Shown here in pieces: positions 27,393 to 27,538 of a stretch of 64,000 nucleotides of DNA. Source of the stretch: a virus (lineage: Duplodnaviria > Caudoviricetes); IMG/VR virus record IMGVR_UViG_3300028591_000134, positions 37,233 through 101,232 of that record; one strand, given 5' to 3'. Each line of letters opens with the position of its first letter. Position 1 is the first letter of the stretch. Both the position numbers and the translations under genes were made by a program. The notes beneath the pieces were generated by a model. It searched no databases, had not been told where the DNA came from, and saw only the letters and a program-made list of their open reading frames with translations.

Positions 27393-27427
27393 AACTTTGA
27401 TAGTTAGTCGCTAACTGATCCGTAATA

Positions 27428-27538
27428 GCGGTCCAAAAGACCATTGTAAGCTCGTCTGCATTTATTAAACAAGTTAGCTACTCTTGCTTTTATGCTACGA
27501 ATAGGATGTTTTCTTCTGAACCGCGTTATGCGTTTTTT
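27428..27538 (-). promoter_or_regulatory. Programmed -1 ribosomal frameshift signal
   Basis: In-frame A_AAA_AAC (27538-27532), 7-nt spacer, 13-bp stem 27524-27512 / 27440-27428; the -1 frame is open for 42 codons to TAA at 27406-27404. Confidence 0.7.

Follow-up and report, generated by a model that had tools for sequence, protein, structure and literature searches.

The window analysed here is a stretch of 64,000 nt from a 101-kb virus record, which has its closest named relatives among the crAss-like phages of the family Suoliviridae (Crassvirales) and whose DNA is contained in public sequencing runs from sheep and bovine gut metagenomes. Its minus strand carries four genes in an order that is shared by the relatives: a sigma-70-like gene, a gene for a protein of ~140 aa, a gene for a 490-aa protein and a gene for a signal-anchored protein (Table 1). 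The 490-aa gene, which is the subject of this study, sits in the non-structural arm, and its 3' end carries the features that we describe below as a candidate recoding site. The layout of the sigma-70 gene and the ~140-aa gene resembles a sigma/anti-sigma pair, and on the other side of the operon the following ~1.9 kb (24950-26890) hold no long ORF.

The 490-aa protein has an N-terminus that is disordered and rich in Lys, Ala and Pro and a C-terminal helix rich in Lys and Glu, and its AlphaFold model is all alpha with a mean pLDDT of 70.5. It has 80 homologs, mostly of 481-509 aa. Searches for the protein in Pfam and PHROGs gave no match, Foldseek against the PDB returned nothing at E <=0.001, the ESM Atlas gave no usable match, and in BFVD the matches were limited to uncharacterized crAss-like proteins. 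Assignment to a known fold was also considered and rejected, as the best Z in a wide VIA-align comparison was 6.7, obtained with generic helical bundles and lying under the noise level of helical proteins.

Table 1 Positions of the genes and of the elements of the candidate recoding site in the window
Feature	Position	Strand	Basis or remark
Sigma-70 family gene (region 2 plus region 4)	29480-30082	-	Syntenic in all relatives
~140-aa gene	29061-29483	-	Syntenic in all relatives
Zero-frame gene, 490-aa protein (P0001)	27526-28998	-	ORF list and translation
Slippery heptamer A_AAA_AAC	27532-27538	-	In phase with the 490-aa ORF; P site AAA, A site AAC
Spacer GCATAAC, 7 nt	27525-27531	-	Contains the zero-frame stop TAA, 27526-27528
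Closing helix, 5' arm	27512-27524	-	MFE fold; conserved core GCGGTT at 27519-27524
Closing helix, 3' arm	27428-27440	-	MFE fold; conserved core ACCGC at 27428-27432
Structure interior, nested hairpins inside the closing helix	27441-27511	-	Also encodes the middle of the tail; sequence poorly conserved
-1 frame extension (tail)	27404-27532	-	42 codons at 27407-27532 plus TAA at 27404-27406
Motif CTATCAAAG(TT)	27390-27403	-	Immediately 5' of the ATG of the next gene; conserved in relatives
Downstream gene, 166-aa protein (P0002)	26892-27392	-	Hydrophobic N-terminal signal or anchor; syntenic in all relatives

Architecture of the site

The 490-aa ORF ends in ACA AAA AAC GCA TAA, in which the heptamer A_AAA_AAC is followed by a single sense codon and the stop. 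From C27532 onwards, 42 codons can be read in the -1 frame, whose stop falls 11 nt short of the ATG of the next gene at 27392, while in the upstream direction a TGA closes the frame two codons before the heptamer. The frame contains neither ATG nor GTG, and the two TTG codons that it does contain are not conserved. The predicted trans-frame product would have 489 + 42 = 531 aa. The original prediction, made from the letters of the window, had described this arrangement of an in-frame heptamer at the end of the ORF, followed by a -1 frame of 42 aa that lacks an ATG of its own and nearly fills the intergenic gap; its coordinates and phase were verified and the description stands.

The window by itself makes a weak case, because in-phase A6N heptamers occur 12 times across its 59 ORFs and because one open frame of 42 codons has a chance of ~4% at the composition of the window. 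Among the 12 heptamers, only the one at 27538-27532 has a long -1 ORF (the longest, at 42 codons) and lies one codon from the stop. The significance of the site therefore comes from its conservation in relatives and not from the window alone.

Conservation in homologous loci

Loci homologous to the 3' end of the gene were gathered from viral and metagenome contigs, from assemblies encoding selected homologs and from reference phage genomes, which resulted in 36 distinct loci with protein identities from 95% down to ~22%. Loss of the heptamer in homologs, or stops in their -1 frame, had been named in advance as the outcome that would speak against frameshifting. Instead, 33 of the 36 loci keep both an in-phase run of at least six A's, no more than two codons from the stop, and an open -1 frame. 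In these 33 loci the -1 frame is open for 16-71 codons, as compared with 3-17 codons for the +1 frame, and the stop of the tail ORF falls between 4 nt inside the next gene and 38 nt before its ATG (-4 to 38 nt). Twelve of the tails are mutually unalignable, and if they are taken as independent, the joint chance that all are open is ~2e-12. Across the loci the -1 frame closes 1-23 codons upstream of the heptamer and there is no conserved start codon. The last base of the heptamer is C, or A in relatives, and in none of the 33 loci is it G.

The heptamer is also held against synonymous change. The codon that precedes AAA AAC has A as its third base in 30 of 30 loci, being ACA, GAA, TCA, CAA, AAA or GTA, although such codons supply only 12-55% of those used for the same amino acids in these genes; likewise, AAA accounts for only 21% of the Lys codons in these genes, AAG being preferred. 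Since the A of the preceding codon is kept and AAA is otherwise a minority codon, selection on the A-run acts at the level of the nucleotides and not of the protein. The C-termini of the homologs read K-N-x in 77 of 80 cases, while the Lys/Glu-rich residues upstream of them vary freely.

Two of the relatives are informative in lacking the arrangement. In cr10_1 (Boorivirinae) both the in-phase run and the tail are missing, and the next gene begins 6 nt past the stop. In cr124_1 (L044, 2790-2945), comparison with its congener cr7_1 (L038, 2850-3050) reveals a 59-nt deletion that has taken out the A-run together with the Lys-rich end, and the start of the tail is now in frame with the body of the protein. 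Only 11 residues of the fused tail remain before an extra deletion of 1 nt interrupts it, and the hairpin has a degenerate 3' arm. The in-frame joining of the tail start to the body therefore suggests that the tail belongs on a protein of the 490-aa type. The RefSeq CDS of cr124_1 continues past a TAG inside it and extends into the next gene.

Coding signature and predicted properties of the tail

The tail evolves like a protein, with third codon positions being the most variable. When the tails of 19 loci from the clade of the window were aligned as protein, the pairwise differences at codon positions 1, 2 and 3 numbered 2307, 1901 and 3360, respectively, and pN/pS was ~0.5 with pS near saturation. 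The same periodicity was obtained from a frame-blind alignment of the nucleotides, where the column entropy by -1 codon position was 0.83, 0.57 and 1.19, and the Arg codons of the tail interchange between AGA and CGT. The aligned tails begin alike, with a conserved basic segment of the pattern R-F-R-R, H/Y-P, R-S, and the remainder is variable and mostly basic.

The coding signature demonstrates that the frame is translated and not that it is fused, and would thus equally be expected if the -1 ORF were a separate small gene, produced by non-canonical initiation or by reinitiation after the TAA and never joined to the 490-aa protein. The short distance between the end of the ORF and the next gene, of the kind seen in tightly coupled operons, would also agree with such a gene. 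Its start is nevertheless hard to place, since beyond the missing ATG and GTG and the unconserved TTG codons the sole near-cognate candidate, an ATA just after the site, reads GTA or CTA instead in two loci. Moreover, a separate gene would not explain why the A-run is conserved, down to the silent third base of the codon before it, and the fusion of tail start and body in cr124_1 likewise argues against it. We consider it very unlikely that the tail is made in this way.

Joined to the 490-aa protein, the tail would prolong an existing helix. AlphaFold applied to the tail alignment reached a pLDDT of 81.6 and placed helices at residues 2-8 and 10-37, so that the tail is predicted to form a single long helix, kinked at the conserved Pro, that would extend the C-terminal helix of the body (residues 461-489). 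The expectation of an Arg/Lys-rich tail was borne out by its strongly basic character, with a net charge of +10 in the window and of +7 to +13 in the close clade. The accompanying idea that the tail is amphipathic did not fare as well, as the maximum hydrophobic moment is not above that of shuffled controls in most loci; because amphipathicity lies within the range of these controls, we make no claim of membrane binding.

The tails of four loci (L003, L004, L016 and L033) end at TAG, and in L033 a likeness to the V-S-A end of longer tails persists in the codons past the TAG. In this phage group TAG is reported to be reassigned to Gln late in infection (PMC7886860). The length of the tail might accordingly depend on the state of the code, that is, on whether TAG is read as a stop or as Gln.

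RNA structure downstream of the heptamer

A 13-bp stem including two G-U pairs (27524-27512 / 27440-27428) begins 7 nt 3' of the heptamer, at a distance within the 5-9 nt that serve as a criterion for the stable structure of -1 frameshift sites. This stem, which had been noticed in the sequence beforehand, was recovered as the closing helix of the MFE fold. The fold has an energy of -37.4 kcal/mol (z = -4.4), which none of 200 dinucleotide shuffles equalled in stability, and it is identical to the centroid structure.

The position of the structure is conserved across the clade of the window, where GCGGTT is invariant and separated from the heptamer by exactly 7 nt in all 19 loci, pairing with A(C/T)CGC located 60-90 nt farther 3'. 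The 7-bp core of the helix is almost invariant, with one pair that covaries (U-A to C-G) and two that become G-U. Beyond the core, the extensions of the helix are lineage-specific yet complementary: cognate arm extensions pair with a mean of -5.2 kcal/mol versus -3.3 kcal/mol for non-cognate ones (p = 5e-5, phylogeny not corrected for). In most loci the MFE fold of the region after the heptamer includes the closing helix, with z from -2 to -5. The closing helix spans a loop of ~70 nt and its arms also code for conserved residues (R-F and N/D-R); true covariation is thin because both arms encode conserved residues and the core is mostly invariant.

Outside this clade, the more distant Oafivirinae with runs of A6-A7 (cr272_1, cr7_1, Bohxovirus, cr131_1 and cr130_1) have unrelated hairpins of 7-10 bp that start 5-7 nt past the run. 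In the Loutivirinae with runs of A9-A10 (cr60_1, cr113_1, cr109_1, cr56_1 and cr4_1), no significant downstream structure was found, z being -0.2 or higher.

So strong a fold, together with the conservation of the helix core and of the CTATCAAAG motif, could also mean that the gap is a structured non-coding RNA element and nothing else, for example one that regulates the downstream gene, with the open -1 frame as an untranslated by-product. A by-product, however, would hardly stay open in 33 loci, including the 12 with unalignable tails, while the +1 frame always closes early, nor would it show enriched third-position variation and synonymous swaps of Arg codons. An Rfam search of the gap gave no match, no terminator- or promoter-like site was found in it on the strand of the gene, and the A9-A10 relatives retain the ORF without the structure. 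A purely non-coding role for the gap is in our judgement highly improbable.

The motif in front of the signal-anchored gene, in the form CTATCAAAG(TT)ATG, is conserved family-wide (L036, L037, L038, L040 and others), with ATCAA-ATG as its Loutivirinae version, and the CTATCAAAG motif occurs just three times in the window. It may be a translation or reinitiation element specific to this gene.

Length of the A-run and the agent of the proposed slippage

The main competitor for the ribosome as the agent of slippage is RNA polymerase. If the host or phage enzyme added one A to the transcript, standard translation would give the same tail, with the junction K-K-R instead of K-N-R. The crAss-like phages use an unusual RNA polymerase. 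Several features of the relatives would suit such transcriptional slippage, above all the A9-A10 runs without significant structure in the Loutivirinae, and runs of nine A or T are known to slip efficiently in bacteria (PMC5009743). In cr53_1 (L048, ~3040-3130) the run is A9 and the homologous tail lies in the +1 frame, and in cr4_1 the run is A10 and the tail lies in the -1 frame; both tails would be in frame in a transcript with A8 or A11. The arrangement in cr53_1 either reflects a homopolymer error of the assembly or hints at expression by slippage.

Runs of this length are present only in the Loutivirinae relatives and in two further loci (L027 and L008). The run of the window, with six A's, is shorter than the approximately nine or more expected for transcriptional slippage, and most of the clade likewise has only A6-A7. 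Polymerase slippage has no known role for a conserved structure at a fixed spacing of 7 nt, and every A6 run is in the X_XXY_YYZ phase, though this phase may be inherited. In the contigs of three RNA-library runs A6 is present without any indel, which excludes only a majority of A7 transcripts, given that a minority of A7 is invisible in assembled contigs and that DNA may be present in RNA libraries. Transcriptional slippage may well operate in the A9-A10 lineages; as the explanation for the site in the window we regard it as rather unlikely.

Variation of the run at the level of DNA, either as a contingency locus or as assembly error, would turn the tail on in some genomes. Run lengths among the relatives are indeed 6, 7, 9 and 10, and cr53_1 differs by one A from its relatives, which changes the frame that is required. 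By contrast, an identical A6 is found in the DNA run, in the assemblies of the three RNA libraries and in many independent assemblies, and six A's are short for replication slippage. Genomes with the tail switched on should encode a fused form of ~530 aa, which is absent from the 80 homologous proteins (searched over 269-858 aa), the sole partial fusion being that of cr124_1. Of the explanations weighed here we consider this the least probable.

Proposed mechanism

We interpret the site as one of programmed -1 ribosomal frameshifting, located at the very 3' terminus of a gene conserved in the Suoliviridae, and assign this interpretation a probability of roughly 0.6. It agrees with the reading originally put forward, in which slippery site, spacer and stem together direct the shift, and which gains support from the retention of the site in 33 of 36 loci, from the substitution pattern of the tail and from the constant 7-nt spacing. 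The site has an in-phase X_XXY_YYZ heptamer, held against synonymous drift, and a startless -1 ORF under coding selection. The ribosomal route is favoured over slippage of the polymerase because the run is short and in the right phase, the spacer is fixed at 7 nt, the structure is stable and conserved, and hairpins are found in the same place in the other A6-A7 lineages. That it is the ribosome rather than RNA polymerase that slips, how efficiently it does so and what function the tail may have, we infer from these patterns.

Weighing against ribosomal slippage are the A9-A10 relatives without structure and the +1 tail of cr53_1, a pattern for which transcriptional slippage or run-length variation is the better fit. 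Additionally, in E. coli A_AAA_AAC is far less prone to shift than A_AAA_AAG (PMC5009743); the host here is presumably a member of the Bacteroidota.

Under the proposed frameshift, most ribosomes would decode AAA AAC GCA TAA and release the 490-aa protein. Some ribosomes would pause with tRNA-Lys and tRNA-Asn on A_AAA_AAC, halted by the stable branched RNA structure that starts 7 nt downstream and is closed by the GCGGTT.../...ACCGC helix. Slipping back by one base, the paused ribosomes would then read 42 codons in the -1 frame and produce an isoform of 531 aa, in which the C-terminal helix is lengthened by a strongly basic helix of ~37 residues. The shifted ribosomes would end 11 nt short of the signal-anchored gene and may couple its translation to that of the upstream gene; such coupling is possible because the end of the tail ORF is never more than 38 nt ahead of the next ATG or 4 nt into the next gene.

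A broader scenario, which we put forward tentatively and consider rather unlikely, is that one site was kept throughout the history of the family while its mechanism drifted. The A6-A7 lineages would use ribosomal -1 frameshifting with lineage-specific structures, the A9-A10 lineages without structure would use transcriptional slippage, and the shifted ribosomes, by ending at most 38 nt from the next ATG, would also determine how strongly the downstream membrane protein is translated. If this is true, the frameshift would have two roles, generating isoforms and coupling the genes at a fixed ratio, in the Shine-Dalgarno-poor translation of the Bacteroidota.

A phage-encoded tRNA-Lys with the anticodon UUU (31532-31605) lies ~2.5 kb upstream on the same strand. 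This tRNA-Lys(UUU) would sit in the P site on the slippery AAA, and AAG is the preferred Lys codon in the gene; a link between the tRNA and slippage is speculative.

Comparison with known recoding systems

Several well-studied recoding systems share individual features with the site. In phage lambda, the -1 frameshift of G/GT is conserved across a phage group by position and not by sequence, and is routinely missed by gene callers. The group-wide -1 shift predicted here is similarly kept by position, but it belongs to another gene family and module, and where G/GT adds a whole tail-assembly domain the product here would gain a single basic helix. The Listeria phages A118, A500 and PSA have 3'-terminal frameshifts in their cps (capsid) and tsh (tail) genes, giving C-terminally extended isoforms beside the normal product. 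Both cases thus place the recoding at the 3' terminus of a phage gene, whereas the Listeria examples concern structural genes of Gram-positive siphoviruses, some of them with +1 shifts, and the present site is found in a non-structural arm near a sigma-factor gene.

The frameshift extension of gene 10 in phages T7 and T3 comprises a few dozen residues. There, a -1 shift near the end of the gene gives the capsid proteins 10A and 10B, and a distant 3' element contributes to it (PMC5009743). The resemblance lies in the -1 shift near the zero-frame stop and in the C-terminal extension that a fraction of the protein is predicted to carry here. The slippery site of T7 and T3, by comparison, is of the G_GUU_UUC type and the gene encodes a capsid protein without homology to the 490-aa protein, while the present site has a branched structure 7 nt downstream and a presumed Bacteroidota host.

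With IS911 and other IS3 elements and with dnaX of E. coli, the site shares an A-rich X_XXY_YYZ heptamer and a structure after a short spacer. The stimulator of IS911 is a three-way junction (PMC5009743), comparable to the multi-branch fold predicted here. The heptamer of dnaX and IS3 is A_AAA_AAG, unlike the present one, in which the last base is C or, in relatives, A and not G. Further, dnaX and IS3 have an upstream Shine-Dalgarno stimulator, which is not expected in the Bacteroidota, and the outcome is a transposase fusion in IS911 and a truncated clamp-loader subunit in dnaX, as against a short C-terminal tail here. In Thermus dnaX, transcriptional slippage takes place on a run of 9 A/T nucleotides (PMC5009743). 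A homopolymer that opens an alternative C-terminus is common to the two systems, and the Loutivirinae homologs, with A9-A10 and no hairpin, look similar to the Thermus case; the window differs from it in having a run of six A's that is followed by a conserved structure at a spacing typical of frameshift sites.

Significance

Our literature search found no paper describing a recoding site in this crAss-like gene. In five RefSeq records and in the called genes of nine assembly contigs, ~60-350 nt at the position of the tail are uncalled, and in the record of Dulem virus 42 only a tiny and different CDS is annotated there. Judged from sequence, the site is a family-wide case of a well-known kind of recoding, with a predicted trans-frame product.

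The crAss-like phages rank with the most abundant viruses of the animal gut, and their gene expression is already unusual in its stop-codon reassignment and introns. To this, the family-conserved site adds a predicted isoform that none of the database records examined contains. The site would provide a natural system for studying the rules of -1 frameshifting in Bacteroidota hosts. The contrast between A6-A7 lineages with a hairpin and A9-A10 lineages without one further offers a comparative handle on the evolution of frameshift stimulators. For the phages themselves, the site would mark the 490-aa protein as one that is needed in two forms, in some ratio.
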